64,000 nucleotides of DNA from Candidatus Omnitrophota bacterium (GCA_016206785.1 JACQQV010000031.1:35860-99859), one strand, 5' to 3'. Positions 1 to 24,346 are shown, counted from the first letter of the stretch. A program made the numbers and translations. Notes: generated by a model from the letters alone, not told the origin.

Positions 1-1212
<1,212 letters not shown>

Positions 1213-1240
1213 TGGTACCTCCGTTAAAAGTTTACTATAA

Positions 1241-1274
1241 CATAAAAAAGCGCGCCGGTCAATCAAGCGCGCTT
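1241..1274 (-). terminator. Rho-independent terminator downstream of the giant gene
   Basis: Inverted repeat AAGCGCGC(1248-1255)/GCGCGCTT(1267-1274) with an 11-nt loop. On the minus-strand transcript it is followed by CUUUUUUAUG (reverse complement of 1241-1250). Confidence 0.5.
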
Positions 1275-1300
1275 TGAAATGTGAGATTGAATCCTAAAAA

Positions 1301-4300
1301 TTACAGCCCTTTAAGCACCATGGTGGCGATCCGCTTCGCCTCAGCAAGTTCGTTTTGCACCTTTTCGCTTGTCATCAGTTTCCCGGCCTTACCGAATCCC
1401 TGCGTCACCTCGACAAGGAGGAGCTTTGTGGTTGTGTCAAGATCTTCAAGCCGGTCTTCCCTAAGGAGAGACATTTGCGAGGCAAGACTTGTCCCCAGAT
1501 ACACCTCTTTAAGGAAATCGACCGGTGTCTTCAGGGGGACCGTAAAAACCTTCTGCTCATTGATAGAGGAAATAAGGGCTTTGCGGTGGGGCCCAAATGC
1601 GAGAGAAACAGGAGAGAGAAGTCCATGCTTTTCGAGCCCGAACGCTTCTTGATCCGCCGGCGTCAAAAGAAAGACCGCGGATGGCTTTTCAGGGAGTTGA
1701 TCCAAACGGGTCTTGAACCGACCCGCCATCTTGTCGACCAAGGGAGCCCCATAGGCATAGCTCAATTCATCAAAGAGTTTTCTTCCTTCTGGCGTCGAAA
1801 ATTCTGGAGCGGCAAAGAATAAAAACCCTTCTGTCTGTTTTAAAAGGTAGGAAAGGACGTCTGGATTCGATGTTAAGTCCTCATCCAGGAGTCTCGATGC
1901 GCTTAACAACAGGATTGTGGATTGACTGATGTGATCCATCCGGCTTCCAATTTCAAGATGGAGGATGTCTTCCTCAACAGGCATCGGTATCCGTTTCGGA
2001 TCTAATTTTTTATTCTGACGAGAAAAGAGCTCCCGTACCAGGATGGTATAGAGCGTGCGGATCGAACCTCGATGCGCTTCGTCGGTTTTATTGAGTTCAT
2101 CAAGGAGGGGCTCCTCCTCAAACATCTTCGATAGGGTAATTGCTTTGGGACCCACGCTCTTCATAAGCGATGTGACCGCCTCCGCCAGCGAGACCTCTTT
2201 CTTCCCGCCGTCTTGGGCGTAAGATTGGACACGTTCCGCGAATCTGTCATTTTCTGCAAAAATCCAGTCGGGAAGTGGGAATCCTTTATCGACGAATTCC
2301 TCTTTGAGATATTCGGTTCGGCGCTCCGCCTCGGCGCCATAGAAGGCAGCGTCGTATCCGAGGACGGTATCGAGATTCGCACGGATGAGGGCGACGTTCG
2401 CCTTGTCCTCCGCCGTCATCTTCTCCGGTAAAAGATCGTCAAGAATCCGCTCAATTGCGGCACGGGTCGGCATATAACCGAGGGATGTTTCAACCGCCTC
2501 TCCCTTCCCCGTTGTATTCCCCTTGATCCGCTCGGTCGCCCAGATGACCGCAATCGTATTCCATGAATAACCGGGCCATAGGAAATTTCCATCGGCTCCC
2601 TTCTGGAACCAGTTCACATGGAAAAAGAGGGGTTTGTTCTCACCGAGTTTCTCGATCACGGCACGCTGATTGTCCAGATATTCCTTTTCACTGAGTCCAA
2701 AGAAAGGCTTCATCGCCACAGGGTCCGGCTCAACGGCACCCACCTTCACATCACTTGCGGCAGCGGTTGCCTCCCGGATGAGCATAAACTGATCGTAAAG
2801 ACCTGAGTTCAGATCCCGCGACTGATAAATGAGCGGGACCCCTTTGGACATCTTCCCCCCGACGAAGAAGGCATGAACGGTGAGGCCTTTCGGATCGTTC
2901 CATTTTGGCGAACGGTTCGGAACGTTCGTAATCCGGGTGGTAAACCGCGAGTTTGGATGGGCCCATTGGTCCACGTTCGGATGCGTCGCGGGACTTGCCG
3001 GCTCCCGTCTCCAGTTGATCCATCCCTCACCCGTCGGAAGTTCTTTTGTAAGTTTCCTCCACCACACTTCACCCGTAAAAACATTGTAGGCGACATTTGT
3101 AAAGACGGTTCCCGTATTGTCTCCGATCGCCTCCATGGCCACCGCATTGGAACGCTCATTGGTGTCGGGTGCTACCCCAAAAAGCCCACGTTCCGGGTTA
3201 ATGGCATGAAGTCTATGATCCTCTTCATCGACCCACGACCAGGTAATATCATCTCCAAAAAATTCTGTCCCATAGAGATGCTGAAGGGGTGCAGGAACTT
3301 GAAGCATCGCAAAATTGGTTTTGCCTGAAGCGCTCGGTGCCGCATCAAGGATTCCGAAAAGTCCACCGGTTGTTTTGTCACGGAATCCGAGCATCGCCAT
3401 ATGTTCGACAAGCCATCCCTGCTTGGCAGCAAGGTACCCCGCAATACGAAGCGAGACATGTTTTTTGCCGAGGATTGCATTCCCTCCGTACGCCGACCCA
3501 AAAGACCAGACTTCACCCTGATCGACCACATCGACAAAATAGCGATCATCATCTGTCAGTTTTTCAAGATCCCCTGTGGCCTGGACTCCCTCAATAAACT
3601 TTCCACCCTTTTCTTCCAAGGCAACCAACGCCTCCTCGCCCACGATGACCTCACCGACCGCTGCCATAATATCTTGATTGGTGAAAACGTAAGGATTGTC
3701 GGTTAACATCATCATCACTTGAGAAACAGGGGACTTTCTTAGTCCCATGAGGACCGGTACGACATACATCGTCTTCCCGGCATAAGAGCCCTTGACCTTC
3801 GCCTTCACTTCTGGAAGAAATTTCTCCGTGAGTCGATGATTGTTATACCGCCCTTTATCCGCAGGATTACTGGAGAGAACAAAGGTTCTCTTCTCCATCC
3901 GGGCCACATCGTTCACATCGGAGAAGGAAACCGAGGTACCGTTTTTCCGCCGGATGAAGTGCCCCGGACGTACGACCTCTTGGACGGCCTCCGTGAAGGA
4001 GAGGCCGTCGCCCGTAAGCCGCCGGATTTCTACCGCAACTTCTTCTTGCGTCCGCGCCACGCCAGCGATCGCTTCCTGAATGTCGTCCTGATTCAAAATA
4101 ACTTTGATGCTACCGGCGCCGACAAAGTCTACCATCTCCGAAACCCACCCCCGCGCCGCTTCGTTCTGGATTTTGGCTAACTGGATCGCCTGATTCTCTC
4201 TAAATTCTTTCCCACCCCCATCCGCGGCCCTCTTTGGAACATAAACGAGAAAAGCCATGTCCATGATGTTGGTCCCGGTGGGGCCTGTGATGATATGAAT

Positions 4301-7300
4301 TCCCATCTCTTTTGCAAAAGCCCCAGACTTAAAACGGCGAAGAAACTCTTCGGGATCAAGCCCCTTCTTTTGAGCCAAATCTACCGTCTCACTCGTTACA
4401 ACCGCCCCAGCACCCCCCCACCGACCATCCTTCCCATCGGTCGCCCCTGCCAAGAAGGTTGCCTTTCCGAGGTTCCTTTTCTCAAGTTGTAAGGAAGAAA
4501 GGAGATTCGCTACCGTTAAAGCAAGGTGACTATTTCTCCCACCCTCTCCTGCTCCAGGTGGTACCTCCACCTCTGGTTCCCCACCCCAAAGGAGCACGAC
4601 AGGCTCTTTTCCAAGATAGGGGGAGAGGGTTGATACCATTCGATCCGCTTCTTTTTCTACAGATTGGGTAAGGGGCTCGTCAATAATCACTGTCTTGAGT
4701 CCAAAGGAACGAGCCACCTCCGCCGCCCTCTCAAGACCGGGTCTATTTCCAAAGAGGAGCGCTGACTGAAAACGTTTTTGGTCGAGGAAGGTGTCACTAG
4801 GTCGAACCACTTTTTGTGTTTGTTCTTTGATGTTTTGTTCAATATCATCGCGTACCGTAAGAGGAACTTTGTCCCACAGTTTACGTTTTACGAGAATATC
4901 CTTCGCGTCTTGAAAAGTGCTTCTATCCCCAACGGTGTACCCGGAAGCGATATCTTCGAGTCGATCATACGGAACGTCAGACCCAAGGAGATTCACAAAA
5001 TATTTTGCATTTCCACCGAGTTTTAGAATCTCGGTCCGCTGATCGACATGCTTACGGATAATATTTTTGTCATGAATATTCATTCCTGAATCTTCAAGGG
5101 TTTGGTAGAGTTCCCGTAAATCCTTCAATGGAATTTCAGGAACGGGGAGAGCACCGATCGCGCTCCCTCCTCCCGAAATAAGGGTGATCACCATATCCTG
5201 AGGGGTCGCTTTGGCGAGGAGTTTCAATATTGCTTCAGTCCCCTCGGCCCCCTCCAAGCCTGGGGTTGGATGTTGACCGGCATACAGTTGAATGACACCG
5301 ATCTTGCCACGATATTTTTCCTTCTGTTCATGCCCATCGACACTCAACACACCCGCCGTGATCCGGTTCCCAAAAATTTTATGAAGCGCCTCGGCCATCC
5401 CGGCAACCACCTTGCCATATCCAACGACGTAAATATGTTTGACCTCGTTCAAATCATATTCACGTCTTTGGATCGTGAGTTTCTTTGAAAGAGCATCATA
5501 CACGACATTTCTTCTCACCGCATCCGAAGCATTGGCGCTTTGGATCGCCTCAAAGAACATCCGGTTTGCCAAAACCTCTTCAACCGGAACTCCAGGAACG
5601 GGATTCTTGGGAAAGGAGCCATCCAGAATTGCACTTAGGTTTTCAAACGCGATCTCCTGCATCCTGCGGCGGACAGGAATCACCGCGCTTCCTGTATGCC
5701 CTGTGATCTTTACATTGGAAAGTTCAAAAAGACCCTGCTTCGAACTTCCATTTGTATTGCTCTCATCAGTGAGCACATCGAAATGGCCCTGAGCCTCCGG
5801 GTGCTTTTTCAAATGAGCGATCATATCTTCTTCGTTTATAACGCCACCTCTTGAAGTATTGAGGTGGATCGCTTTAGGTTTGGTTTTCGCGAGGAATTCT
5901 CGATTCACCCAATGTTTGGTTTCTGAATTCAGATCAAAGAGGTAAGTGAAGATATCGGGTTCTTTAGCAAGGGTATCTTTATCGACCACTTGAATCCCCT
6001 GTCGAGAGGCGCGCGCGATATTATCGGAATTCTTTTCAAAAGTGAGCATCTTCATTCCCAATGCAGCCGCCCGTGAGGCAACCGCCTGACCGATCCGGCC
6101 GAATCCTGCGATCCCGAGCGTCTGTCCGGCAAGAGTCTTTTCAAACAATGCCCCTTCACGGCCCGATTTTACCCAAAGATCTTCAGGGTCAACAATGGTA
6201 TGGTGAACGCCATCAAGAGGAGTTGTTCCTGGAAGACGAATGACGTAATCTGCTTTCTCACGAAGTTCGTGGAGTTTTGGCACGATGGGAAAGTAGGTTA
6301 AACGAAGTTTCGATTCCTCTTCAGGAGTGAGCCGTTGATCCTCAGGGGCGAAGTAGACAATAGAAGCGATGCCGTGGGCGTTCGCAAATTCTGCAAGACG
6401 CTTACCCACCTCATTCATCCCCACAATCCCAAGAGAAGTTTTGACGCCGACCTCCGGATCGGCTCCCAATTGATCATGAAGAATGGTCGCCTCAGGGCCA
6501 ACACCACATCCACAATACTTCCCATCCCTGACAAACTGGTACATGTCACCCAAACGGAGGGACTGACGCAACAGTTCTCCCCAAAGGATCTCCGCCACCG
6601 CTTGCGGATGTTGGGGAATTGCTGCAAGAAGAACCTCTTCCAATTTCTTCTTTCCAATTTTTTCCTGAGAAATGGAATCGGTAAGGAGGTAGTTTGCGTT
6701 GAGCGCCTTCCCGATATTGAGCTCGGCCATCGCAATCGTTAAGGGGCTCCCGGTAGGCGTCTGTGCATTGGTCACAAAGATCCCCCGCTTCCGCGCCTCT
6801 TCGCGGTCCACATTGTTATACCCGATGCTGAATTGAAGAATCCCTTTTAAATGGGGGGAGGCGTCCATAACCTCTTTGTCAAAACTCAAATTGGTAAATC
6901 CGGTGATGTAGTCATAATCTCCCTTCCGGACAATTTCGAGAAATTGCTTTTGATCGAGGCGTTGATAGTAATCTTCTCCGGCTTTGAAAATTTCAGACCC
7001 GGTCCTCAGGACGTCGACATTAACGTCTCCTCTTTGTCTGTAGAGCTGGCGGACATTCTCATCCAAGGGCTCTATGACCAATACATTTGCTTTTGGATTT
7101 TCAACCCTCGTTCTTCGGACCTCGACTCCCGGCACGACCTCAACGATGGATTCCTCGGTAGGCTCCCGTACAACTTCTCTCCCTCCATCGCGAGAAGCTT
7201 CATAGGTCCCCTGTTCAAAGGAATGGCCTCCTGCACTCGGGTAGAAGCGGGCCATCCGGAATCGGTTCGAACCTTCTTCAATCGGATCAAACCGGTGGAT

Positions 7301-10300
7301 CCCCGTCTCTACAAGAGGTTCTGCGTAAATAGCGACTTCAAAGAGGATTTCATCACCGTCATTGATCACTTGATGAACCGGATTGATGACTCGCGTAATT
7401 TTTGAAATACTTCCCTTCCGAATGGATTCTTCCGAGACCTTTTCCAGAGAGACAATGTTTCCTGCTGTTTGTGAAACCATACGAAAACGCCTCTCCTTCC
7501 CACGCCCTTCACCGACGATGCAGAAGACACAAGCATTTCCACCATGATTATGAATAGGATTCCCTTGACCGGGAAGATACGCGATAATGCTTAATTCAAA
7601 ACGCTTTTGGGGATCGAGGTGAATCACAACGCGGGGGTAATCGGTAGGACCTTTGAGGCCTTGGACCTTTCGCTTGGCAATGATATCGAGGATGCCGATC
7701 TCTTTTAAGAAATCTGGGGAGCGCGGAAGGAGTTCGTCGGTTAAAATCCTTGCCAGGGTATCTGCAAGACTCTTCTGTTCTTTATCCGATAACTTCTGAC
7801 CTTTCTTTAAAGAATCTACCTCAGCCGTCACACGATCCACAACCGCCTGCGTCACAGCGCCATATTTTGTCCCCCCATCCGTTCCAGATTCATACTTGGC
7901 CGATTTTTCCGCCGCCTGAGAGGCCTTCCACTCTTCCACCGTCGGAAGTGGGAAGAAGGCATCGAAAAGCGGTTTCACAATTCGCCCATCCTGAATCGCC
8001 TCGAGAATTTTTTCTTTCTCGGGGCCAGGATCTTTATCGGCATCATTGAATCCAACTTGAAGATCCCGACGGATGAATTCATAAAGCGGTCGTGTGTTCC
8101 CAAGGAGGTGGCCTCCCCCTTGTTGCAAAGCTCTTTCTTTAGCCTGAGGGAGTAACAGATCAAGACGCTTCGCAAGAAGTTCCATAAACACCTTATAATA
8201 TCCAGCGACAGCCTTGGCGTCATTGACAAGGTTGACCTCCACAGACCCAACCGCTTTCGGATCGCTCCGAAGAATATCGTCAATTTCGCCCGCCAGCGGA
8301 TCAAAAAGCGGCTTATATCTTTCAGAAGAAGTAAATGCATAATAATAAGGAGGGATCGTTTTCGCTTTCTTGACCAAGTGCGCGGTCATGAGAGGTGCGA
8401 TGTCCTTCCAATTCGTTACGACACTTGGCAGTGTCTCCTCAACGGTTTTTGCAATCGCTTCCTCTGTGGCGTTCTGGTAGATCCGTTCAATATTCCGGAG
8501 GTCAACCGCCTGAGCCGTGGAATAGAGATGATTTACAAGCATGAGTTGAAGAACTCCAACTGCCTTTTGCGTATACCGCGCAGAAATCAGGGCCAGCGAA
8601 TTGACGTCTTGATTCCCCAGCTCTGCATTTTTGACGTGAGTGGTCACTGGATTCGCCAGATACTCCAGCTCCGATTGGTAACTCGCCATTCCGATTTCTG
8701 AACCCTTATCCCCAAAGTCGAGGTTCGGGTCAGATCCTGCGAGATTTTTAAGGAGGCCGTTGTTGTAGGCGTCGCTGTGAAGTTCGGTATATTGGGCAAA
8801 AAGAATCTGGCCGATCGCGGAGAGGGCAAGACGTGTATTCTCCATGGCGACACCGAGGGGTGTTCCCTGGAAATTCCCTCCGTGAAGCACGCGGTCTCCT
8901 TCAACATCAATAATCGGATTGTCGGTCACAGAGTTCATTTCGGTCGTCACCGCTTCGGTTGCCGCCAAAACGACCTCGAGTTGCGGCCCAATGGCTTGGG
9001 GAGCGGTCCGAATTCCGTAACGGTCTTGCCGCATCCTCCCCCTTTCAATCTTTTCTTTCCCGTCCAGCTCATCCCGTGAGAGCCGACTTCCCTTAAGAAG
9101 ATGCAGAAGGTTTTCACCCACTTCAATCTGTCCTAAGTGTGGTTTGATGGCTTGAATGACCGGATCGTAACTTTGATTCGTGCCGATAAGCGTTTCGACG
9201 CTCAAAGCGGTTGTCGCCTGGGCAAGCAGAGCGAGAATGTTGGCATCATACAACACGTGGGTTGCCAAGGCATTGGCGACAGAGGTGCCATTGACAAAAG
9301 CAAGGCCTTCTTTAGGCCCAAGTGCAATCGGTTCAATGCCGGTGATCTGAAGTGCTTCTCTGGCTGAAATTTCTTTTCCTTGATAGCGTGCCTTTGCCGT
9401 CTCTTTCCCCATGAGCACCGCAAGCATGTGAGAGAGCGGTGAAAGGTCGCCGCTCGCCGTGATCGAGCCTTTATTGGGTACAACAGGGGTAACCCCCTTG
9501 TTAAGGAGTGCCACAAGATTTTCCAAAACAAGCCAACGGAGTCCCGAATATCCTTTAATATTGGAATTGGCGCGGATGAGCATGGCACCACGCACCTCAT
9601 CCTCCGGAAGCGTCGGACCAAAGCTCGAATTCAAGAAACGGATCAGTTCTGCCTGCAGTCTTTGCACTTCATTTGTCTGGGCGCCCGCGCTTCCGCCATA
9701 TCCTCTGTTGACGCCATAAATATCCCTTCCTTCGGCAATCGCTTTCGCAAGCCATTCCACAGAAGCATCGACCTTTGCTCGGACCTTTAGAGAATCCGTC
9801 AAAGAAACCGGTACACCATGCTGAGCCACTGCGGCCACATGGGGAATAGTAAGGTCTTCCCCGGTGACCACAACTTTATCGGTACGTTTCAATCCTTCAG
9901 CAAGGGCAAGTACAAGATCCCGATGCTTCGTCTGTTTGACAATATTTCTGAGTCCTTTCGTGTCTCGATAAGTTTTCTCCACGAGTTGCGCTTTTTCTCT
10001 TTCAACTTGTTTTTCTCTTTCCTTCCGGGTATACAATTCTTCAATCTGTTTTGCGAATCGCTTTTCAATCTGTGGACGAATGAGAGAGCCTTTTGGTGAA
10101 AGCGGAAGCGGTTCTTCGCCTGGCGCCATAATCACAATATTTTCCCGACGGACCCTTGAATAATCAAGGAAGTATTGATTAACATCCTCGAAGAGCCCCC
10201 AGATCGCTTCCTCAATGTCCATCCACTGTTTTCCTTTGAAAGCCGCATAGTTCGGTTGGACAATGGCGATATTGTAGGGTCTCAAATGCCCCACCAAGGC

Positions 10301-13300
10301 AGCCTTTTGAATCAAGGGGCTGTCTTCAAGCGCCATTTCAATTGGAAGCGGATTTGTCTTTTCGCCTGTCGGATGTGCAAAAATTTCGTCGTTCCGACCC
10401 ACATAGACATATCCCCCCTCAACCTCTTGGAAAAGATCTCCCGTATGGAAACGTTCAGGTTCTTTAAAGACATCTTTTGTCGCCTCTTCATTTTTAAGAT
10501 AGCCGGCGGTCACGGTTGGACTATTGTCAAGGACGAGCTCTTTCCCTTCAAGACCCGGGGTAGAAACAAAGTCGGCGTTCACCCCAGGGATCACCCGAAG
10601 AGTCCGCCAATCGCGCTTTTTCGGGTCCCCCAAGAAGATCGCGCCTCCCACATCGGTCATCCCCTCGCCTTGGATGACATTTACCCCCTTCCCTTGGAAA
10701 TATTTTCCAGTCGCTTCTGAAAGAACAACGCCACCTGACATGATAAATTTAAGGCCCCCCAATGTATCAAGTATCGTCGGATCTTTCTCTGCCATTGCCT
10801 GGAATCCTTCGAGCATCCACGGAACGGTGTAGAAAACATTCGCCTTGGTTTCTCTTAAGGAGGCGAGGAGTTGATCGGGCGTCGGCGGTCCCGGTTTTAA
10901 CCGTGGGAAGGCATATTTGGCACCGACGTACAGATTGCCCAAAAACTCAAAAGGGAGCCCCATGACATGAAAGAACGGAAGCCAACCGAGGGTCATATCT
11001 TCGTCGGTAAAATCACCCTCCCAGGCGAGCCGCGAGGCCTCCCGGTTATAGAGGAGATTCTGATGGGTCAGCGGAACTCCTTTTGGCAGTTTGGTGGTTC
11101 CTGAGGTATAAAGGATCAGTGCAACGTCCTCCGGTTTTATATCAACAGGCGGGATTTCGACAGGGGCCTCACCCTCTTGCCAAGTCGCTAAAGAAATTTC
11201 ACCCTCCTGAAGTTTTTCAGGAGGAAGTGCATCCAGTACGAAGATTTTTTTGATGTTTAGATTTTTAGATTTAAGGTCACGGGCGGCCTGAAGGAAAGGA
11301 CCTGCGGAGACAATAAGGGAAGTCGCATCAGAATTGGACACCATATGTTCAAGCACGGGAGGTGGCGCACGAAAGCTCATTGAGACAACCGCCCCTCCCA
11401 ATCCCCAAACCCCCATCGCGGTTTCCACAAATTCAGGACGATTCGGTGAAAGGAACGCGATCCGATCTCCCGGCCGGACCCCTTCGGTATAAAGCGCTTT
11501 CTTCAGCCGTGCCACCTCTTTGTCAACTTGATTGAAGGAGACCTCTTGGTATCCCTGCGTCGATGGAACGACGAGAAATCCCCGATCGCCATATCTCTCC
11601 ACCTGCATCGCCCAAAGATCCGGAATCACTCCCGTCTTCAGGGTCAGTTCTCCAAGGCGAAGGTTCCGGTAGGCACCGTCTTTGGCGAACTTACCCGCAT
11701 GTTTCTTGATGATTTCCTGATGGAGCGCCGGTTCAATATTTTTCCCCGAAATCATCAAAACGACGGTCCTGGCGTTTTCAAAAAGATCGCGATGTGCAAG
11801 AAGTGCTGCCACAGAAAGGACCCCCGCTCCTTCCGCCACAATCCCTTTTCCTTGATAGTGCTCCTGGTGAAGGAGTGCGATGGCGCGTTGGATATCCTCT
11901 TCCGAAACTGACACGACACTTCCAACTTTTTCTTGAAAGATCTTAAAGGGGATGACGCCTGGGCGTTTGACCTTCGCGCCGTCCGCAAGGGTCTCCGGGG
12001 AATCAATTTCAACGATCTTTCCGCTTCTCAGAGAACGAAGCATGCTATCTGATCCGGATGCCTGAACCCCGATTGTTTCTGTCCGCGGAGAGAGGGCACG
12101 GGTCACCGTCGCAATTCCGGCCAGATACCCTCCGGTTCCTACAGGCGCAACGATAACGTCGGGAGTCACTCTGTCTTTTTCGAGAATCTCCAGCGCAACA
12201 GTCCCTTGTCCGGCGATGACCCAAGGTTCAACGGGCGAGATGAAAATATTGCCGCGCCGGAGCGCCTCGTTATACCAGGCTTTCCGGAGGACATCGTCAA
12301 ATTTACCAGTGACCGTTTCCAACCGTCCTCCCAGTCTCTCGATCGCCTGACGCTTCGTAGGAACGATATCCTTCGGAACAAAAATCAGATTGTCGACTCC
12401 AAAGCGGTTCGCAGCAAGGACGACCCCTTGGGCATGATTTCCCTGGGAAGGGGCGATCACGGTGATACCCTTCCGATCAGCGAGCGGAACATTTTCAAGG
12501 ACATGAGCCACTTTCGCAAGTGCCCCGCGCCACTTGTATGAACCGATGGAGGACTCGCTGTCCAGCTTCAGGTAGATGCGTCGGTCGGTTCCTTTTCCAA
12601 AGAAATATTCGCTCAGAACCGGCGAATAAATGAGGGGCGCTTCTTCCAAGTAAGGGCCCATGAGACGATAAACTTCCCGAACCCGATCGATATCCACGTA
12701 TCCGTAGCGGGGCTCAAGACGTGTCCACCGATCCTCTGAAACCGCATGGGGGGAATCGGGAAGGGTGGCAACTTCTTTCAAGGTTACGAAGACTTTCGCA
12801 AGCCGCAGATCGATAAAGTAAGGATCGAGGGTTTCAAGATAGGTCAGGTCGATCGTCTTTTCCGGCACCACGCCCCCCTCCTGCGTCAGAAATCTCACGA
12901 TCTGGATTATTTCTTCGTAAAGGGCTTCCTCATATTGGGTCGGGTCTGACACCTGACGGGACTTAAGGTAAGCAAGTTTATCGATCGGCTCCAAGAGTCT
13001 CAAGGAACCGTTGGGGGTATCCTTGCTCCGACTCATTGTGCCGATGATACGGTCCTGAGCCACCTGACCATCCTGCACGATTTGGAAAACGACCTTCCCG
13101 TCTCCTCGCATCTGGATGGTAAAGGTGACAAATTCATAAGGCCTATTCCCCACGTTGGATTCGAGGAGTCCTGCCACTTCCTGAATCGTTTTTCCTCCAC
13201 CGTCGCGGGCCATGGCAGTGCTGACTAAAAACATTCTTCCTCTCCCTGTCACATCCCCCGAAGGACCGATTGAGACTTCATTAGCCCAACTGCTTCTTCC

Positions 13301-16300
13301 TGTAAAAATATTTCCTTTCCGATCGGTAAGAATACGTAGTCTCCCGTTGACAATCTCAACGTCTGTAATCTTCGGGCCTTTCTTTCCAGAAGGAGGTCGT
13401 GCAAATCGAAGAACAACCACTTCATCTTCTGGGGTCACCACCATGGCCAAAGCGGGATCTAATGCAGAGGTCTTTCTGGATAATCCTCTTATCGGAAAAC
13501 GAATGGGATTCTGCCAATAACTATCTTTCACAATCGCGACCCACTCTTCTCCTGCAAAGATCTTTGTCCCCCCTGTGGCAGGCCTCACTCCTTCTTCCCC
13601 TTGGACTCTGCTTTCATAATAAATAAAAGGCCAACTCCATTTTCGATGCTCCATTTCAATAGAAGCACCTCTTTGAGAAAGGGTCCCAGGATCTGTGTCA
13701 AATGTGGAGTGCGTCAATATCAAGGGAAAACTCTCTGGAGAAGAGATGCTGTCTTGAATTTTTTCTTCAAGGAGGTCATGAAGATGACTGTGTGGAAGGA
13801 CCTGCTGCCCAAATGCGTAGGAAGGGACGTCGACACGGAGTCGATCTCTAAATTGTTCAAGATTTAACCCTAGATTAAAGTGGTATCTGACACCCCCTCC
13901 AATATCTTCTGCAAGGAGAATCCCCTCTTGGACCAAAGGTCTAAGTGCTCCTAAGATCTCTCCTTCGCTCCTGATTTGTTGAAAGACCAAGGCCTCGCGC
14001 AGCCCACCATCCTTCGCAAACTGCGGGGGGGCTTTTTCCACTGCCACAGGCTTCCCGGCCTTTGCAAATGCCGTCGTGATCATGGCGACGACACGTTTCA
14101 GATTTCTGGCGATATCCTCTTCGCTGATCGGGACATTGGGATTGTTCAAATCGGCGGCCAGGTAATTTTGCGCAAGCATCCTGTCATGGATGGAAACGAA
14201 ATCGACCTGATCCGCATAGGAAGTTGCAAAAAGGTATTGGTCGGGATTGTCCGCGCGGACGCCAAGTTTGAATCCCTTGTGACTCCGCCTTAAATCGGTC
14301 TCCTCCAAAAGATCATGGGCGATTTTTAAATGAGTCACGTCACGGACATCGGTGAGTTGTATCAAAATGTTGTCAATGCCACCTCTCCGCGCCTCCTTCA
14401 CCGCCTCAAACTCCCAGCGGAGAAGAGTCCGGTATTCATCACTCGCAACATACCGGTAAAATCCTCCGAAACCGAGGGGGGTGTTTTCTTCCTTCTTGTC
14501 AAAAACAGTTCCATACCGAAGGGAAAGATATCCTTCGCTATCCAAATCGCTGGTCTGATACACAAGCTGCTCGCTCTTTTTCGACGAGACCGCTTTGGCA
14601 AAGAACGCAATGAGTTGGGTGCGGTAGTAATCCTCCGCTTTGATGAACCCCTTCTGGCCGATAAGCGTACGAAGGGTGGTCTGAATCTTCCGGATACCTT
14701 CCAAGTCCCTATTCAGTCTTGTGAGGAGTGCCGCCTTTTCATTGGCTATCTGAAGAAGTTCAATCCTTTTTTGCTCCTGCCCATCACCCAACGACTTGAG
14801 ATTGCGTTCGGCAGCAATTCGATCTTCCCTGGTTGTTTCAATTTGATGCAAGATTTCTTGTTCGATCTGATGGAGTTTCCCGCTGTCATAATAAAGGAAA
14901 GCGAGGGGGTGAATTTTCAGGATGTCACGGTAGAAATCGGAAGCCCGTATCGTCTGGATCTCAAGCCGCTCCGCGGCCACTTCTCTTTCGGGGATTTCGA
15001 TGGCGTCAGGCGTGGTCACCTCTCCACGGGTCAAAGGAAGTCTCCCTTCATAAATTTTTCCGGTCTTAAAATCAGCAGTAACAATTTGTCCTTCCTTCAA
15101 GTCTCCTCGGATACCGACGAGGACCGGTTTCCCTTGCGCTTCAGCTTCTCGGAACCAGGGACGGTCAAGGTCTTGGGCCTCAAAGAAAAATGCCCCCGCT
15201 TGATTGACAACACCGTTGGGAACGGCGATCCTTTCGGAACCCTTTCGAAATAGAACAAAATCGCCGAGTTGGATCCGACGGAGATCTTCCGGATCTTTGA
15301 CCACGACCATGTGACGGTCCCCCGCACCCTGTGTGGCAAGCGTTTTCCCAAAAGCGACCTCATGCGCTTCACGAAGGGATGCTTCTGAAATGGAAGAAAG
15401 ATTTAATTCCGCCTCGGAAATCAGTTTGACGGCTGCAAGGAACCCACGGACGTCTGTTCCGGTTGAATCAAGGAGTACGGCAATCTCGCGGGCCGCCTGA
15501 AGGTTATACCCCGGTTCGCTCGGATTGGTGAGTTTGATGATCGCCTGACCGCAGAGACCGCAGGTAAACTTCACGTTGCGCCTCTGGCGTGCTTCACGTA
15601 CCGCATACACCACATGACGGATGCTATTGACGATAGCAGGATGCGATTCTTGGAAAAGGGCTTTCACCAAAGGTTCTTCACGCCCCGCGCGGCGTGTTGT
15701 TTGTGTTAAGTCATTGGTTCCGAACGAGAAAAAAACATCCTTTCCGGTTTCCTTCGCGTATTGTGCCAAAAGATCCGCAAATTCATCCGCCTGAATCACG
15801 TTTGAAGGGAGCTCAACCATCATGCCGACGGTATGAAGCGGCATTTTGACTTCCTGGAAGCGTTTAAGACCTTTCCGGAGTTCTTCCGGCGTCCGGACAA
15901 AGGCGAAGAAGGCCCCAATATTGGTATAACCGGCCTCGTAGACCCGCTTGAGCGCTTCTAATTCCAAACCGAGAACTTCACGGTTCTCTTCCTTTAATAG
16001 CCAACCTGTTCCACGGTCTCCCAACATCGTTGCGCGCTCACGGGAACCGAAGACACCGCCCCCTGTAATCTGGAGAAGCTCGTTCTGTTTGAAATCGTTG
16101 AATCGGTAGAGAACTTTTTGATGAATCCCATTTGCCGCCGCCATAGAGGCGAGACCTTCATAGAATTTTCGGACGTAATATTCACGGGCACTGGGATAAC
16201 CGGCCACACGCCTCTCGATTTGCGCAACCAACTGGGGATGGGCACGGAGTTTTTCAACGTCTCCGCGCTCATCCATAGTCAGGGAGGTGTTGGAATCTTT

Positions 16301-19300
16301 TTCGAGTCCCTTCAGATTGTCGTAGGCGAGGATCGCCCTCGGATGAATTCCGACGCCGACAAGAATAAATTCTGCCCGGGCAAGACTGATCCCGTAAAAA
16401 GAAGGGTAAAGGGCAAGGTTGGAAACTTCCTGCATCGCCCGGGGATTTGCTACAATCAGTCCCGGTTTTGTGAAATGGGTCTCCGGAAGTTGGTCCACAT
16501 CGATCTCAACCTGCTCGGTTTCGATGGGGAGTGCTCCTTTGTAAATCCTCCCCGTATTGGCATCGACCGTGACCCAGTCATCTTCGGTAAAAAGATAGTC
16601 CCTCGCCTCCCTGTAGTGCGAAGGGGCTTCCTGCCGAAGTCTTTCCAAATCTCCATTAATTCCGGTGATCGTCGCCAGATTCAACTCGCGGCTCACAATT
16701 GCGGCATGAGAGGTGTCTCCTCCCTCTTCAGTAATAAAGCCGCGGACCCCCTCGGTTTTCATGAGCGGTTCCTGTCCGGGGGTCGTAAAGTCTGTCACAA
16801 TGATAGTATCCTCCCCAGACTTTCGGAAGTCAGCGACTTTGTTGCGGATACGGTCCTCTTCCCGGGCATAGTCTCCCTTGAAACTCCTCGCCTCGCGATC
16901 CAGAACGATGACCCGTCCGGTAAACGCATTCCGCCCCTGAACGCCTTTGACCAAAAGTTTCCCTGCCCCTTCCGCCTCCTCCGCCACCTCCTCCGGAACA
17001 AAAGTTCTTTTAATGGAAACATTCCGCGCCCCGATGTCGGAAGGGGTGGTAACGGCTCGCGACTGCACAAGACCCACGGCGGAGCGTTCCATCGCCCCTT
17101 CCATATCGCGGATCCCTCCGTAAAAATCGGTAGCCGCTTTGAGTTGTCGGGTAATTTTGATGATCTCTTCGTCGGTTGCAGCGAATTGATTTCTTTTTTC
17201 AGGAGGGACATGGGTCCAAATGAGCCGCTGTTTCGGATCTTCGAGAAGCGCATGGATCGCGTGGGTCAGTTGCAAAAAGTTTTCTCGCGGAAGGACAAGA
17301 TGTTTTGAAACGGCTGCCGGTAGATGAAGTCCCTCTGCAATCGCCTTCTCGGCCCTCTCTTCAATCTCCTCGTGGATGCGCACAATGGTCCGAAGAAGGG
17401 GAGCGATCTGATTCCCGTTATAAATCTTTCCAAGGAGTTCAGGGGAAAGGGCGACCCCCCTCGGCTGGAACTCTTGCGCGATATAACGGCGGACCGCTTC
17501 CATGAGTTGTGCAAGCTCCTCTTGGGTGATTCCCGCCTTCTCAAGAATCTCCTCCAGATACACCATTTGAGTCCGCTTCGCCCCAAGCTCTGCTTCAATG
17601 ATATTGACATGTTCCCGACCCTCTGCATCCGTGAAGAGATGAACTTTGTAGGCGTCTGGAACCACCATTCCCCCCACAATCGCTTCTCCCAACCCGTAAG
17701 AAGTGGTAATCCGGAAAATCCGTCCTTCGGTGAGTCTTTCTTCGGGGGTATCCTGAAAGCTCCTCGCCGTGAAACCGGTGGTCCGATCGAGGCTGAAAGC
17801 CACAAGGGAGACGTCGCTTCGAATCATTCTTTGAATGGGAACTGCAAGAGAAAGGCGCGTTGGATCAATGTAAGGCTTTCCCGCTTCTTCCAAAAGTTTC
17901 AAGAAACGGTCCGCAATCCTTGGGTGCCCGGTCCGGATTTCCACCAGGGCGTTCCGCATCTTTGCATGGGGAACATACGTTCCCTTTTCAAGATTTTCGC
18001 CGATTTCCCGTACCTGTTGCCGCGGCGTCTCCTTCAATGCCGAAACAAGCTGAGAAAGATCCTGCGGGGTTTCAATGGCGCTGATGAATGCAAGGAAGAT
18101 TTGCGTATCCCGGTAGCTGATGGCGTTCGGTCTAAAAAGACTTGCCAAGACATCCCGATATCGCTCGAGGACAAGGGAGTACCCCCTCACATTCAAAAAG
18201 GTCTCCTGTTGCCCGGCACTGGAACCGGAGGAGATCTCCACTTTCAACCCCGAGCGGAGCGGCTTGGAAGGATCAATCTCCACATCTTCGACGGTGCCGG
18301 AGCTTCGTACGGCGACAGGGAGATTCATATCGGGATAACTGTTTTCCCGGCTGAGGACCATATAATTTCCGACAACCTCCTGTTCAAGATCTTCCGGCAT
18401 CACCGCCTGCTCAATCGCCTTTTGAATCGCCTCTGAAGCATCCTTGAGGGCATGAGGGTCGGTGACATCTAAATCGGAAAGGAGCCGACCGATGGTATCC
18501 CTGATTTCAGGATTTGCATCGAGGAAACGCTGGTATCCTGCTGCCGTGACAATGAATCCTGGTGGGACAGGAACCCCATGACCAAACATTTCCCCAAGAT
18601 TCGCACCCTTCCCGCCCACAATCGCCATATCATGACGCCCTACCTCTTCAAACCACACCGTCAGTCTTTGAGAAATATCTTCAGCCCTTTTGCCTTCGCC
18701 ATCTCTGGCCGCGAGACCCCATTGTTCTCCTCGGGGATGGTTTAGAATGCGCACTTGCGATAAAGTCCTCGGCAGCCTTCCGAAAGCCACCTCATTGACA
18801 AGTTGAAATTCGGCCTTCGATTCTCTATGGTCGATTTCAAACTCTATCACCCAAGAGTCTGCATCCGCTCTTCCCATTTCCCGTAATGCGATGCCCCGAT
18901 GATGACCTTCCGCGATGAAGAAACGGGCCCGTTTGGGTTCCGGCTTAATCACAATAAGCGCTTCACCTTCGCCCTGTTTAATTTCTTTTTTACGTACCTC
19001 AATTTCTTCTCGAAAAGCGGTTGGGGCGGCGGGCGCCAACACACCTAACGAGAGTGTACGACGATAAACCTTCATGGGTACCCCATGAATTCTTTCAAAA
19101 TCTCTTGCTAACCGGTATGCCAAATCTTTGGAGTAATCCGCAACGGGAATTCGGTAAACGCTTCCTCCCGGACGGATTCCCAGTATGATGCGGCGGTCGC
19201 CAATATACAAAGAGACCGCATCATCACCCTTAAAGTATGTGGGTTCATGAATAAATAGTGCGGAGAGCGAGGGATCCTTCGCCCGCGCCTTTTGGAGTGC

Positions 19301-19558
19301 ACGGAGGAGACCCCATCGGCTGGCACCTTTCTTCTTCGCGCCCGTGAGAATTGTTGAAACTTTTCTTAGGAGGGGGCCCGAAAGCTCGTTAAAGAGTTGT
19401 TGCTCGCCTCCGTCCTTTGCGCCGATGACGCTGTGGGTGCGAAGATGTGAAGAAGAAGTGAAGATATCCTGCAAGGCATGTGCAGGCAGGGTATTGGTAC
19501 AAAGGAATGCTTGAAGAATGATCCAACTCGAAACTTTAATCCAAGTTTTAGACTTCAT
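1301..19558 (-). CDS. Giant (6085 aa) signal-peptide-bearing multi-enzyme-domain fusion protein
   Basis: A single stop-free frame spans 18,258 nt. The N-terminus [28 protein letters not shown] looks like a signal peptide. I checked the motif positions against the DNA by back-translation: GGDTSHAAI at 16697-16723, SYKWRGA at 12521-12541 and KGSITASGD at 9446-9472. The sub-domains are listed below as separate features. Confidence 0.85.
   Translation of the reverse strand: [6085 protein letters not shown]
1304..2458 (-). other. C-terminal region (~385 aa) of the giant protein with no recognisable family
   Basis: I recognised no known motifs in this region. It is mixed charged and hydrophobic, and it ends ...[11 protein letters not shown]. 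Confidence 0.3.
2459..4171 (-). other. GTP-dependent phosphoenolpyruvate carboxykinase-like domain (aa ~5130-5700), paralogous to pckG at 55807..57579
   Basis: [38 protein letters not shown] aligns with [37 protein letters not shown] in pckG. The P-loop is [13 protein letters not shown], with Ser in place of the pckG Cys. Other matching segments are [32 protein letters not shown] and [19 protein letters not shown]. Confidence 0.8.
4259..5521 (-). other. Glycerate 2-kinase (DUF4147 + MOFRL family) domain (aa ~4680-5100)
   Basis: [54 protein letters not shown] and [10 protein letters not shown] match the conserved motifs of GckA/TtuD-type glycerate kinases. Confidence 0.65.
5609..6991 (-). other. 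D-isomer-specific 2-hydroxyacid dehydrogenase (glycerate dehydrogenase/hydroxypyruvate reductase-like) domain with a ~170-aa insertion (aa ~4190-4650)
   Basis: The catalytic domain is [42 protein letters not shown]. The NAD-binding motif is [33 protein letters not shown] and ITGHTGSA carry the catalytic His. Confidence 0.7.
7289..7636 (-). other. Cysteine-dioxygenase-like cupin domain (aa ~3975-4090)
   Basis: [25 protein letters not shown] parallels the CDO type-I motif IHDHxxSHCFxKxLxGxLxExxF. Confidence 0.45.
8279..9856 (-). other. Aromatic amino-acid ammonia-lyase (HAL/PAL family) domain with an intact MIO-forming Ala-Ser-Gly triad (aa ~3235-3760)
   Basis: [15 protein letters not shown] carries ASG at aa 3368-3370. 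[26 protein letters not shown] and GIRTAPQ are typical of histidine/phenylalanine ammonia-lyases. Confidence 0.75.
10019..11521 (-). other. Adenylate-forming (AMP-binding, acyl-CoA-synthetase-like) domain (aa ~2680-3180)
   Basis: Core motifs are present: [14 protein letters not shown] (A3), [24 protein letters not shown] (A7/A8) and [15 protein letters not shown] (A10 PxGK). No carrier-protein domain follows. Confidence 0.7.
11609..12631 (-). other. PLP-dependent (fold type II) threonine/serine dehydratase-like domain (aa ~2310-2650)
   Basis: SxKxRGA with the PLP-binding Lys in [15 protein letters not shown]. It also has [11 protein letters not shown], the glycine loop [12 protein letters not shown], and [11 protein letters not shown]...[11 protein letters not shown] at the C-terminal side. 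Confidence 0.7.
14009..15361 (-). other. Degenerate second PEP-utilizer half (mobile-domain-like plus TIM-barrel-like) lacking the catalytic His and with TNDLTQ replaced (aa ~1400-1850)
   Basis: [12 protein letters not shown]...GDFVLF...[15 protein letters not shown]...GKPVLVGI...[10 protein letters not shown] parallels the first swivel domain, but GGDTSHAAI is replaced by [30 protein letters not shown] parallels [10 protein letters not shown]. A coiled-coil-like segment at aa 1550-1640 lies between them. Confidence 0.45.
15524..18661 (-). other. Complete pyruvate-phosphate-dikinase/PEP-synthase-like module (aa ~300-1345): ATP-grasp N-domain, phospho-His swivel domain, PEP-binding TIM barrel
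   Basis: [14 protein letters not shown] matches the PPDK_N nucleotide-binding motif. [21 protein letters not shown] matches the PEP-utilizer mobile domain with the catalytic His. [10 protein letters not shown] plus FTCGLCGQ matches the PEP-utilizer TIM-barrel motif with the catalytic Cys region. The domain order is the same as in PPDK/PpsA. Confidence 0.75.
18839..19201 (-). other. ParB/sulfiredoxin-like nuclease-fold motif region (aa ~120-240)
   Basis: [17 protein letters not shown] resembles the ParB-like nuclease domain signature DGHHRlxAxxxxG. The assignment is tentative. Confidence 0.25.
19475..19558 (-). other. Predicted signal peptide of the giant protein (aa 1-28)
   Basis: Positively charged N-terminus (MKSK), then a hydrophobic core WIILQAFLC, then an AHA-like cleavage motif. 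Confidence 0.5.
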
Positions 19559-24008: not shown

Positions 24009-24100
24009 CTCACTCACCTCCAAATTCGGCTGGGGGTCTTTTGGGTCTCCACCTCTCACCTTGGGAAGAAGGAAGCCAAAGCCCCCGTCGCCGAATCGAA

Positions 24101-24137
24101 ATAAAAAACCAGGTTGCCCTGTTCCTTTAGGCAACCC
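24101..24137 (-). terminator. Intrinsic-terminator-like hairpin plus U-tract inside the 5' leader of the giant-gene operon (attenuator candidate)
   Basis: On the minus-strand RNA the structure is GGUUGCC-uaaaggaacag-GGCAACC followed by UGGUUUUUUAUU. On the plus strand the stems are GGTTGCC (24113-24119) and GGCAACC (24131-24137), with the A-tract at 24101-24110. It sits about 95 nt upstream of the start codon at 24008 and about 180 nt downstream of the predicted promoter. Confidence 0.5.
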
Positions 24138-24317
24138 GGCTGTCTATTCTAGATCCAAGGTTTTGCAGTCCCACCCTCACGGATGGTTTGCTCTTATCTA
24201 GTGAACCATTCGGCTAAAAACAAATTCCGTTTCAAAAGAACTAAACTTATTAACCATTTAAAAAGGCTTAAGTTACGAACGAAAAAAAATACATGGACTC
24301 GTTCCCTTTTGTAACAA

Positions 24318-24346
24318 AGTATACCATTCAACCCGTAGGTTGTCAA
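24318..24346 (-). promoter_or_regulatory. Consensus sigma-70-type promoter for the giant-gene operon (TTGACA-17-TATACT)
   Basis: The minus-strand sequence reads cccTTGACAacctacgggttgaatggTATACTttg. The -35 box is the reverse complement of 24341-24346, the -10 box is the reverse complement of 24318-24323, and the spacer is 17 nt. Confidence 0.55.

Follow-up and report, generated by a model that had tools for sequence, protein, structure and literature searches.

A 64,000-nucleotide (nt) stretch of DNA from a tiny, uncultured Candidatus Omnitrophota bacterium (GCA_016206785.1, JACQQV010000031.1:35860-99859; hereafter the window) carries a two-gene operon whose second gene is a stop-free open reading frame (ORF) of 6085 amino acids (aa), here called the giant, in which metabolic enzyme modules are strung between a conserved leader and a family-specific C-terminal tail. 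Asp-Gly-Gly (DGG) motifs mark module boundaries, cysteine has been almost purged from the chain, close relatives carry other enzymes in the same layout, and the operon opens with a predicted cyclic di-GMP (c-di-GMP) riboswitch. The reading we favor, to which we give about an even chance of being correct, is that of a second-messenger-induced, exported pre-pro-polyprotein that would be processed at DGG, its enzymes acting outside the producer's cytoplasm.

The initial annotation of this DNA had proposed one gene in a single stop-free frame. The ORF was confirmed and assigned to the minus strand, on which that annotation was silent. The operon comprises the following features, in window coordinates.

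24318..24346 (-): predicted sigma-70-type promoter, TTGACA-17 nt-TATACT with an extended -10 TG, 11/12 matches
24126..24202 (-): c-di-GMP-I (GEMM-I) riboswitch aptamer, RF01051, 52.5 bits versus a gathering score of 35, E 2e-7
24100..24141 (-): intrinsic terminator, 13-bp stem, 9-nt loop, U6, -26.9 kcal/mol, z -4.65
19593..24008 (-): ORF2, opening gene, 1471 aa; start codon ATG at 24008, preceded by a Shine-Dalgarno sequence (GGAGG)
1301..19558 (-): giant ORF, second gene, ATG start, 6085 aa, stop-free

Only 34 nt separate the end of ORF2 from the start of the giant, and no promoter or terminator was found between them.

The giant is a chain of enzyme units

The units below are defined by their junctions. 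Domain matches are from a Pfam scan (cut-off E <= 0.01), with Pfam-dark segments rescanned at E <= 1; PEP stands for phosphoenolpyruvate and PLP for pyridoxal phosphate.

19475..19558 (-): predicted Sec-type signal peptide (aa 1-28, MKSK...PAHA, cleaved ahead of LQ); sequence features, conserved in relatives
19406..19474 (-): leader (aa 29-51) with SHLRT motif, end AKDGG; sequence and leader homology
18695..19405 (-): Unit 1 (aa 52-288), no family match, end at the degenerate junction ARDGEGK
14003..18694 (-): Unit 2 (aa 289-1852), PEP synthase (PPDK_N, aa 313-671, 1e-61; PEP-utilizers, aa 916-1003; PEP-utilizers_C, aa 1050-1339), then a degenerate duplicate swivel and a second PEP-utilizers_C (about aa 1599-1840, 47 bits, E 2e-12, permissive rescan), end FAKDGG; Pfam and NCBIfam
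13196..14002 (-): Unit 3 (aa 1853-2121), no family match, end MARDGG
11672..13195 (-): Unit 4 (aa 2122-2629), N-terminal extension plus PLP-dependent Ser/Thr dehydratase (PALP, aa 2307-2605, 1e-63), end at the degenerate junction FAKDGAYR; Pfam
7871..11671 (-): Unit 5 (aa 2630-3896), aryl/acyl-CoA ligase (AMP-binding, aa 2651-2996, and AMP-binding_C_3) fused to a plant-type phenylalanine ammonia-lyase (PAL; Lyase_aromatic, aa 3236-3703, 2e-145), end SGTDGG; Pfam and TIGR01226
7181..7870 (-): Unit 6 (aa 3897-4126), thiol-dioxygenase-like cupin (CDO_I, aa 3986-4091, weak at 6e-4), end ASRDGG; Pfam and PDB matches
4214..7180 (-): Unit 7 (aa 4127-5115), glyoxylate/hydroxypyruvate reductase (2-Hacid_dh, aa 4190-4654) fused to glycerate 2-kinase (DUF4147 and MOFRL, aa 4664-5100), end RAADGG; Pfam
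2204..4213 (-): Unit 8 (aa 5116-5785), GTP-dependent PEP carboxykinase (PEPCK_N and PEPCK_GTP, aa 5188-5751, 2e-88), cysteine-free, P-loop APSASGKTN, end YAQDGG; Pfam
1301..2203 (-): tail (aa 5786-6085 and stop codon), C-terminal domain specific to the family, with VLKGL at its end, conserved at loci L003, L007, L009 (both genes) and L011 of relatives

At the cut-off the giant matches 14 distinct Pfam families in one to two copies apiece. Every domain that the initial annotation had assigned was recovered by Pfam in the order it gave, and all the catalytic signatures that it quoted as retained were located (TSHAAI at 949, CGLCGQ at 1333, SYKWRGA at 2340, TASGDL at 3367, GFGRIG at 4485 and SGKTN at 5411). 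Two of its statements need revision: the count of at least nine complete modules becomes eight of catalytic type plus one degenerate duplicate, and PAL, the CoA ligase and the cupin lie outside central metabolism, to which all modules had been ascribed. It did not note how DGG-bounded cassettes are arranged between a constant leader and tail, how little cysteine the chain contains, the riboswitch, the canonical PEPCK and GlmS in the window, or the membership of the upstream 1471-aa ORF in the same family and operon.

In Unit 2 the PEP synthase consists of an ATP-grasp domain, a His swivel (TSHAAI) and a TIM barrel (CGLCGQ), and matches NCBIfam PRK06464 at 556 bits. The part previously called a degenerate second PEP-utilizer half is indeed a degenerate duplicate, but it holds a true second PEP-utilizers_C domain, preceded by a swivel-like domain that appears to have lost its His; internal similarity within the unit agrees with duplication. 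Unit 2 is conserved in proteins P0001 to P0005, and the N-extended dehydratase of Unit 4 recurs in P0016 and P0112. The cupin is backed by thiol-dioxygenase matches in the PDB at 4e-5 and retains its His triad.

The PAL of Unit 5 scores 634 bits against TIGR01226 (cut-off 519) over profile positions 13-678/680, and its best match is parsley PAL1 (452 bits over residues 53-704); the ligase matches feruloyl-CoA synthetase and 4CL. This bacterial PAL is thus of the full-length plant/fungal type, with the C-terminal domain typical of eukaryotic PALs and the ASG (4-methylideneimidazole-5-one, MIO) triad. The units delimited by DGG are biochemically sensible. Two fusions lie within units and lack a DGG, and both join consecutive steps: CoA ligase with PAL, and hydroxypyruvate reductase with glycerate 2-kinase.

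The remaining segments are dark. A word-indexed homologue search with giant aa 1-311 gave no match, the giant itself included. PDB sequence searches with Unit 1, with Unit 3 plus the Unit 4 extension, and with the tail gave nothing significant, and the permissive Pfam rescan of the dark segments yielded only the second PEP-utilizers_C. An AlphaFold2 model of Unit 1 (predicted local distance difference test [pLDDT] 49.5) was usable over the first ~90 residues only and had no Foldseek match in the PDB below E 0.03; a single-sequence model of the tail was uninformative (pLDDT 35).

A nonribosomal peptide or polyketide synthase identity was considered and rejected. As the initial annotation had stated, carrier (PP-binding), condensation, ketosynthase and acyltransferase domains are absent from the giant by Pfam, and the AMP-binding domain stands alone.

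A DGG motif marks the module boundaries

DGG occurs seven times in the giant, each time outside the Pfam domains and at a module boundary, and ARDGEGK and AKDGAYR form two additional, degenerate junctions. Across nine proteins of the clade (17,384 aa), DGG was found 23 times versus 6.0 expected and DGGx[KR] 19 times versus 0.73 expected (P 9e-21), counts that are not fully independent, as some of the pooled sites are orthologous. Position -2 is A, S or G in 20/23 sites (A in 13). Six control tripeptides showed no enrichment in the same proteins, and the remaining window proteins hold a single DGG in 11,265 aa. Codons vary from site to site, which ruled out DNA-level repeats at the giant junctions.

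The family follows a common grammar: a Sec signal peptide, an SHLRT leader, DGG, cassettes split by A-x-D-G-G-x-K/R, a last DGG, and a tail of ~300 aa ending in GL. The leader ends in DGG in the giant and in the second genes of loci L009 and L011 (L009g2 and L011g2), and in DGN in ORF2; the leader DGG lies 20 to 45 residues past the signal-peptidase site. Its presence both at the end of the leader and ahead of the tail looks like an arrangement for pro-peptide removal. On this sequence evidence, the DGG sites offer, for the first time, concrete candidates for where the giant multi-enzyme proteins of Omnitrophota might be cut.

Signal peptides and cysteine depletion point to export

The N terminus of the giant has a basic n-region (MKSKTWIK), a hydrophobic core and an A-H-A site, and no other transmembrane-like segment was found in the chain (no 19-aa window with a mean Kyte-Doolittle value > 1.8). 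ORF2, L009g2 and L011g2 likewise begin with a basic n-region and a hydrophobic core; the site that follows is AxA in the giant, ORF2 and L009g2, and VSA in L011g2. A lipoprotein signal was dismissed: the signal-peptide Cys has no lipobox around it and no counterpart in ORF2.

Judged by the window's 26 other ORFs, 63.9 Cys would be expected in the 6085 aa of the giant; there are 7 (P 2e-19), a purge of about nine-fold. Cysteine is equally scarce across the family, with 16 in 17,384 aa and 0 to 0.17% in every member. One of the seven is in the signal peptide and the rest form three tight pairs: CGLCGQ, the PEP synthase catalytic motif, CVFC in the cupin and CGC in the reductase. All mature-chain Cys left in the window's two proteins are such CxxC/CxC pairs, and two surviving sites fall at predicted catalytic positions, the PEP synthase CGLCGQ and the putative nucleophile of the GlmS-like module of ORF2. 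The conserved P-loop Cys of GTP-PEPCK is Ser in the giant's module. Distant relatives that bear a signal peptide have 0.08 to 0.17% Cys, versus 0.55% in relatives that lack one. The purge would be a compositional signature of export.

ORF2 belongs to the same family, and canonical copies are present nearby

ORF2 has the same layout: signal peptide, SHLRT leader, a diverged GlmS-like module (GATase-II and SIS), a VMDGGRK junction (nt 20616-20624) and a 340-aa tail ending RGL. Its signal peptide and leader are homologous to those of the giant (E 7e-6). The ORF as called mechanically (19593-24134, 1513 aa) begins at a TTG and extends into the riboswitch terminator; its true start codon is the ATG at 24008. 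ORF2 has only two Cys, C89 and C92, the latter of which appears to align with the N-terminal nucleophile (Ntn) Cys1 of GlmS. As C92 lies 68 residues past the predicted signal-peptidase site, activity would need a further proteolytic or autocatalytic step to expose it.

Stand-alone, canonical counterparts of two of the enzymes are encoded in the same window:

55807-57579 (+): canonical GTP-PEPCK, 550 bits, 10 Cys, 1.7% Cys, 3.7% Trp
39373-41208 (-): canonical glmS

The canonical GTP-PEPCK is 38% identical to the giant's PEPCK module. The modules of the giant and ORF2 are therefore additional, diverged, cysteine-purged copies.

Cassettes turn over between conserved ends in close relatives

Relatives were found by exhaustive search with a Pfam-dark stretch and by Iso_dh-anchored contig look-ups. 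The grammar and the synteny upstream of Iso_dh-Mdh-SucCD recur at five loci, L003, L007, L009, L011 and L013 (Iso_dh 83 to 92% identical); in a relative with 80% Iso_dh identity the locus was not found upstream of Iso_dh. Their gene content differs as follows.

L003: three unknown units, a GAPDH-like unit, tail
L007: ligase plus PAL, tail
L009, two genes: one ending in ligase plus PAL and tail; the other with signal peptide, leader, cupin, reductase plus kinase, PEPCK_ATP, PGK plus His-phosphatase, tail
L011: a GlmS-like gene; then signal peptide, leader, cupin, reductase plus kinase, methyltransferase, tail
L013: a PAL-containing gene, then an inserted Tc/RHS toxin gene

At L013, positions 3137-9655 (-) hold a 2172-aa SpvB/TcdB/RHS (Tc-toxin-like) gene, a DegT aminotransferase and an unknown gene between the PAL gene and Iso_dh, so the variable locus hosts classical toxin cargo too.

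Turnover falls at the junction motif. L009g2 is 64% identical to giant aa 3891-5119, and the similarity stops six residues past AADGGGKEF. Beyond this point the giant has GTP-PEPCK versus ATP-PEPCK, PGK and a PGAM-like unit in L009, and homology returns ~20 residues ahead of the last DGG. One reaction is supplied from the same position by two different enzyme families, which speaks for activity as the object of selection. The L009 gene pair (PAL-DGG-tail, stop, signal peptide-leader-DGG-cupin) corresponds to a single ORF in the window, joined at one DGG.

The ligase-PAL cassette shares 94.2% DNA identity with L007 over 3.4 kb, the adjacent Iso_dh 75.9%, and the high-identity block stops ten residues ahead of the DGG at 3894. 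By the Nei-Gojobori method (window versus L007), ligase-PAL has dN 0.032, dS 0.144 and dN/dS 0.22, with a dS of 0.048 within PAL; Iso_dh has dS 1.78 and dN/dS 0.04. These values indicate purifying selection on the cassettes, whose exchange is far later than the divergence of the host genomes.

The tails end in ...V(L/V)xGL, or in ...YRENRGL in GlmS-like genes, and alignment shows the two subtypes to be alike only at the C-terminal end. BLAST detected no similarity between the giant's tail, that of ORF2 and that of the L002 protein. A metagenome scan with a five-tail alignment, which is too degenerate, returned among the matches listed only the known L007 contig.

More distant signal peptide-bearing proteins have the double PEP synthase unit or the N-extended dehydratase and are cysteine-poor, without the DGG grammar; their fusion partners are phosphoglucomutase, His phosphatase, proline dehydrogenase and an ARMT1-like phosphatase. 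P0013 and P0018 are PEP synthases without a signal peptide (0.55% Cys), carry an extra degenerate C-terminal PEP-utilizers_C barrel, and by sequence look like cytoplasmic ancestors of the exported double unit. The L002 protein (5244-13037, plus strand), P0004 and P0005 have in common an N-terminal domain of ~700 aa with conserved HxQDxH and GG(F/Y)H motifs. This domain is reminiscent of TIKI/TraB/ChaN-type proteins and may be a protease. The Planctomycetia label on the L002 record may reflect a problem of binning or of taxonomic labeling. On the P0004 contig, L004, a second giant gene (1-9208, plus strand; >3508 aa, with faint TPR, acetyltransferase and ATP-grasp matches) lies directly upstream, so giants cluster there too.

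A c-di-GMP-type riboswitch precedes the operon

The terminator forms in the minimum free energy structure of the full leader RNA and takes its 5' arm from the 3' strand of the aptamer, which couples it to the aptamer as the expression platform. Because the two structures are mutually exclusive, ligand binding should permit read-through; we infer an ON switch. Against the clan variant RF03167 the aptamer scores 50.6 bits, under the gathering score of 59.

Further c-di-GMP-I riboswitches are found in L009 (14472-14567) and, in tandem, in L011 (15146-15346 and 15510-15647); in these relatives they lie upstream of a cluster of response regulator, GAF-PAS histidine kinase and response regulator genes just downstream of sucCD. 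Cyclic-dinucleotide riboswitches seem common in the clade. The distant giants in L002 and L004 to L006 have no preceding riboswitch.

Proposed mechanism and alternatives

In the reading we favor, the operon would be turned on when c-di-GMP, which usually signals attachment, or a cyclic dinucleotide related to it reaches a high level and blocks the leader terminator. Both genes would yield pre-pro-polyproteins with one to about nine enzyme cassettes; the nearly cysteine-free chain would be exported unfolded via Sec, and a Gly-Gly-directed or Asp-directed protease would cleave at or beside DGG, at a bond following either GG or Asp. The leader and the tail would thereby be lost and the units freed. 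The units are additional, diverged versions of ordinary enzymes: PEP synthase, Ser/Thr dehydratase, CoA ligase-PAL, thiol dioxygenase, hydroxypyruvate reductase-glycerate kinase, PEPCK and GlmS-like, to which relatives add GAPDH-like, PGK, PGAM-like and ATP-PEPCK units. They would work outside the cytoplasm of the producer. Given their need for ATP, GTP, NAD(P)H, CoA and PLP, the most plausible place is on or within a host or prey cell to which these nanobacteria would attach. As a set, they converge on PEP, phosphoglycerates and amino-acid deamination, which would fit diversion of host carbon or substrate-level formation of nucleoside triphosphates. Among the three roles suggested in the initial annotation (extracellular or periplasmic multi-enzyme scaffold, structural surface protein, fused metabolon), we favor an exported enzyme set over a purely structural use. 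The full conjunction of attachment-signaled c-di-GMP induction, polyprotein secretion and DGG cleavage, enzymes active in or at host or prey, and horizontally mobile cassettes is a tentative proposal, on balance improbable as a whole.

Several observations weigh against the favored reading. The signal peptide, already reported in the initial annotation, is judged to be of Sec type by its features only. The riboswitch ligand could, from the sequence, be another cyclic dinucleotide. DGG is restricted to this subclade: P0002 to P0005, P0016 and P0112 lack the motif, apart from a single DGG within the second PEP synthase half of P0003. The residues ahead of GG do not fit the classical double-glycine pattern (hydrophobic -4/-7). 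Cassette dN/dS (0.22) is looser than the housekeeping control (0.04). The GlmS-like module of ORF2 is strongly diverged, and the PEPCK module has GGKM versus GGRR in GTP-PEPCKs. At ~4030-4100 of L003 the giant gene is broken in its GAPDH-like module (...HVSCNTPG, stop) and resumes in another frame, through either a sequencing frameshift or cassette decay; a comparable frameshift lies near the start of the L007 contig. The window yielded neither a protease nor a secretion system nor a C39 domain, and the cofactors of the modules are unavailable in a normal periplasm or outside cells.

The lack of a protease in the window also suits an exported but uncut 650-kDa periplasmic or surface multi-enzyme scaffold, in which DGGxK would be a hinge or helix-cap linker and a neutral splice point. 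The sequence after DGG is helix-prone and Gly-rich linkers are common, the ligase-PAL and reductase-kinase pairs are clearly consecutive-step fusions made without DGG, and Omnitrophota giants of up to 147 kaa (thousand aa) are treated as intact membrane-associated proteins in 10.64898/2026.06.07.730766. A passive linker, however, is unlikely to fix D, G, G, a small residue at -2 and K/R at +4 (19/23) with differing codons, the same motif closes the leader and precedes the tail in the manner of a pro-peptide, and the GlmS-like module, as read from its sequence, needs a free N-terminal Cys for activity. We consider an uncut scaffold unlikely.

The cofactor requirement would be accommodated by a cytoplasmic metabolon, membrane-tethered or soluble, whose N-terminal segment is an uncleaved anchor or non-functional. 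Its cassettes form sensible consecutive steps toward PEP and phosphoglycerates, mislocalization calls have been suspected for the glycolytic domains of Omnitrophota giants (10.1101/2023.11.21.568195), and nearly half of long Omnitrophota proteins are predicted to face the cytoplasm (10.64898/2026.06.07.730766). Yet the basic n-region and AxA site predict an N-in/C-out orientation and cleavage; the nine-fold cysteine purge, including the conserved PEPCK Cys, has no cytoplasmic rationale, the canonical PEPCK and GlmS being Cys-normal; and canonical copies of at least two of the enzymes already exist in the genome. A metabolon therefore strikes us as decidedly unlikely.

By analogy with glycolytic enzymes that moonlight on bacterial surfaces, the folds may instead serve at the surface without catalysis, as adhesins, decoys or a structural coat. 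Surface GAPDH, PGK and enolase are established adhesins in pathogens. Cofactors would be absent at the exported location, several modules are diverged and fall under NCBIfam equivalog cut-offs, one PEP synthase half is clearly degenerate, and the GGKM of PEPCK points the same way. Against such a use, catalytic motifs are retained in nearly all modules, two of the few surviving Cys are at predicted catalytic positions, the GTP-PEPCK/ATP-PEPCK swap points to the reaction rather than surface shape, and dN/dS is 0.22. We regard non-catalytic surface use as distinctly improbable.

An assembly chimera or decaying pseudogene fusion, to which the metagenome-assembled origin of the genome, the frameshift in L003 and the other near the L007 contig end might point, has next to no chance: 18.3 kb are stop-free, the junctions lack DNA repeats, the GC content of the giant matches that of the remaining window, purifying selection was detected, multi-module ORFs recur in independent assemblies of relatives (L007/L008, L009/L010, L011/L012), and a Logan contig of run SRR12113385, the product of a second assembler from the same sequencing run, matches window positions 1-11212, the part it covers, with 0 mismatches and keeps the giant ORF unbroken for 4114 aa, until the contig ends. 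On this identity over window positions 1-11212, assembly chimerism was rejected.

Relation to known systems

The initial annotation knew of no described family with such an architecture. That is outdated, since Omnitrophota giants tiled with metabolic enzymes have been described (10.1101/2023.11.21.568195; 10.64898/2026.06.07.730766). Those termed Archaeovorins have signal peptides or transmembrane segments, and an extracellular location is predicted for their PPDK, TPI, GPI, FBPase, PGM and aldolase domains; they contain C39 and S8 peptidase domains, and cleavage is suspected, the lack of cleavage points having blocked further analysis (10.1101/2023.11.21.568195). PilZ genes lie downstream of most Omnitrophota giants (10.1101/2023.11.21.568195). 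A 'multi-enzyme metabolic cluster' class, 94% with a signal peptide or transmembrane helices, is defined in 10.64898/2026.06.07.730766, which leaves its function open. C39 domains are frequent in Omnitrophota giants, and the organisms are thought to attach to host or prey cells (10.1101/2023.11.21.568195; 10.64898/2026.06.07.730766).

The giant resembles the Archaeovorins in phylum, enzyme-Pfam tiling, signal peptide, suspected cleavage, and PPDK_N and other glycolysis/gluconeogenesis domains (PPDK_N, PEP-utilizers and PEPCK in the window; PGK, His phosphatase, PEPCK_ATP, a GAPDH-like motif and PGM in relatives). Both have a link to c-di-GMP, through PilZ genes there and the riboswitch here, and with its 14 distinct Pfam families the giant is akin to the multi-enzyme class. 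In contrast to the Archaeovorins, which run to tens of thousands of residues with numerous transmembrane segments, it has no transmembrane helices beyond the signal peptide, and by Pfam it lacks HEAT/TPR, GT5/GT1, C39, S8 and SecA domains. It is also smaller, 6 kaa versus the 10 to 147 kaa of Omnitrophota giants, and differs from them in its leader/DGG/tail grammar, cysteine purge, cyclic-dinucleotide riboswitch and cassette exchange. At 6085 aa it probably falls below the length threshold of the long-protein catalog, which in the accessible part is apparently >= 10 kaa (10.64898/2026.06.07.730766). A junction motif, Cys depletion, riboswitches, PEPCK and cassette exchange appear neither in 10.1101/2023.11.21.568195 nor in the accessible part of 10.64898/2026.06.07.730766. 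The general kind, giant signal peptide-bearing multi-enzyme proteins of Omnitrophota, is thus already known; what is apparently new is the fixed grammar, the cysteine purge, the extra enzyme copies, the DGG-bounded turnover and the riboswitch-led operon.

Two other comparisons are analogies, and the giant is a member of neither group. MARTX toxins of Vibrio and its relatives carry cassettes between conserved ends that vary by recombination, are freed by linker proteolysis and act in another cell; they use type I secretion without a Sec signal and have glycine-rich repeats and their own cysteine protease domain, which cleaves after Leu. The giant family likewise exchanges variable cassettes between conserved termini. 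Unlike MARTX, the giant has no RtxA repeats or cysteine protease domain by Pfam, its signal is of Sec type and its cargo consists of metabolic enzymes rather than toxins; its Cys pairs are unrelated to any protease domain. Double-glycine leaders are cut by C39 peptidases, and viral polyproteins and ubiquitin-like precursors are cut after GG. With these Gly-Gly-processed precursors the giant family shares an invariant Gly-Gly at the leader end and at polyprotein boundaries. C39 (PCAT) substrates have leaders ending in GG, GA or GS with conserved hydrophobic residues at -4/-7/-12, carry no Sec signal and are encoded next to a C39-ABC transporter. In the giant family, in contrast, a Sec signal precedes the leader, the residues ahead of GG are small-x-D, position -4 relative to the cut is K/R/T/A/Q and K/R stands at +2 after GG; neither a C39 nor an ABC transporter gene turned up in the window.

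The riboswitch matches RF01051, with a canonical aptamer above the gathering score and an overlapping intrinsic terminator, but the usual targets of c-di-GMP-I riboswitches are pili, adhesins, chemotaxis and signaling, whereas those in the window are predicted exported-enzyme polyproteins. The ligase-PAL and reductase-kinase fusions, joined without a cleavage motif, are like AROM, CAD, FAS and bacterial consecutive-step fusions; those are cytoplasmic, fixed and dedicated to a single pathway, whereas the giant is export-tagged, multi-pathway and variable between close relatives.

Genomic setting

The window is an ordinary chromosomal region surrounding the replication origin, with a GC-skew switch near 52 kb, and encodes dnaA, dnaN, gyrB, gyrA, yidC, gidA, parAB, a complete pyr operon and tRNAs. 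GyrB and the Iso_dh downstream of the giant are 100% identical to proteins of NCBI Candidatus Omnitrophica metagenome-assembled genomes, and all near matches are from Omnitrophota; this placement ruled out a Planctomycetes origin with anammoxosome targeting. Iso_dh, for which NCBI uses a start that gives 359 aa, is probably transcribed from a promoter of its own: a promoter-like site (TTGACC-17 nt-TATAGT with TG) sits at 1234-1262 (-), past the stop of the giant and ahead of that start. The TTG start at 1266 is probably incorrect.

Two ORFs without a Pfam match (412 and 259 aa; 32168-33406 and 34925-35704, both on the minus strand) sit inside the otherwise canonical pyr operon (pyrR-pyrB-pyrC-carA-carB-pyrK-pyrD-pyrF). 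Several Omnitrophota GyrB homologues of 970 to 1245 aa (P0158, P0167, P0169 and others) contain an intein domain (PF14890) that the window GyrB (819 aa) lacks.

Implications

Omnitrophota giants are a recognized puzzle, as cytoplasm-type enzymes are predicted to lie outside the cell (10.1101/2023.11.21.568195; 10.64898/2026.06.07.730766). At 6 kaa the present giant is tractable and offers a candidate processing motif together with a family-defining leader and tail, and its family adds an export signature (the cysteine purge), evidence of selection at the level of the reaction, cassette exchange at a motif and a cyclic-dinucleotide input. Whether and where Omnitrophota giants are cut, and where their enzymes work, thus becomes experimentally addressable. 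Metabolic reconstructions based on KEGG orthologues (KO) or in KEGG style may count exported modules as cytoplasmic pathway steps.

If the joint proposal holds, PEP synthase, PEPCK, PGK, GAPDH, PGAM, glycerate kinase, Ser/Thr dehydratase and PAL would be exported in active, cysteine-free form. Carbon of the host or prey would be diverted to PEP and phosphoglycerates, or nucleoside triphosphate would be made for the symbiont, and the cassettes would constitute a mobile effector repertoire, a metabolic analogue of MARTX toxins.

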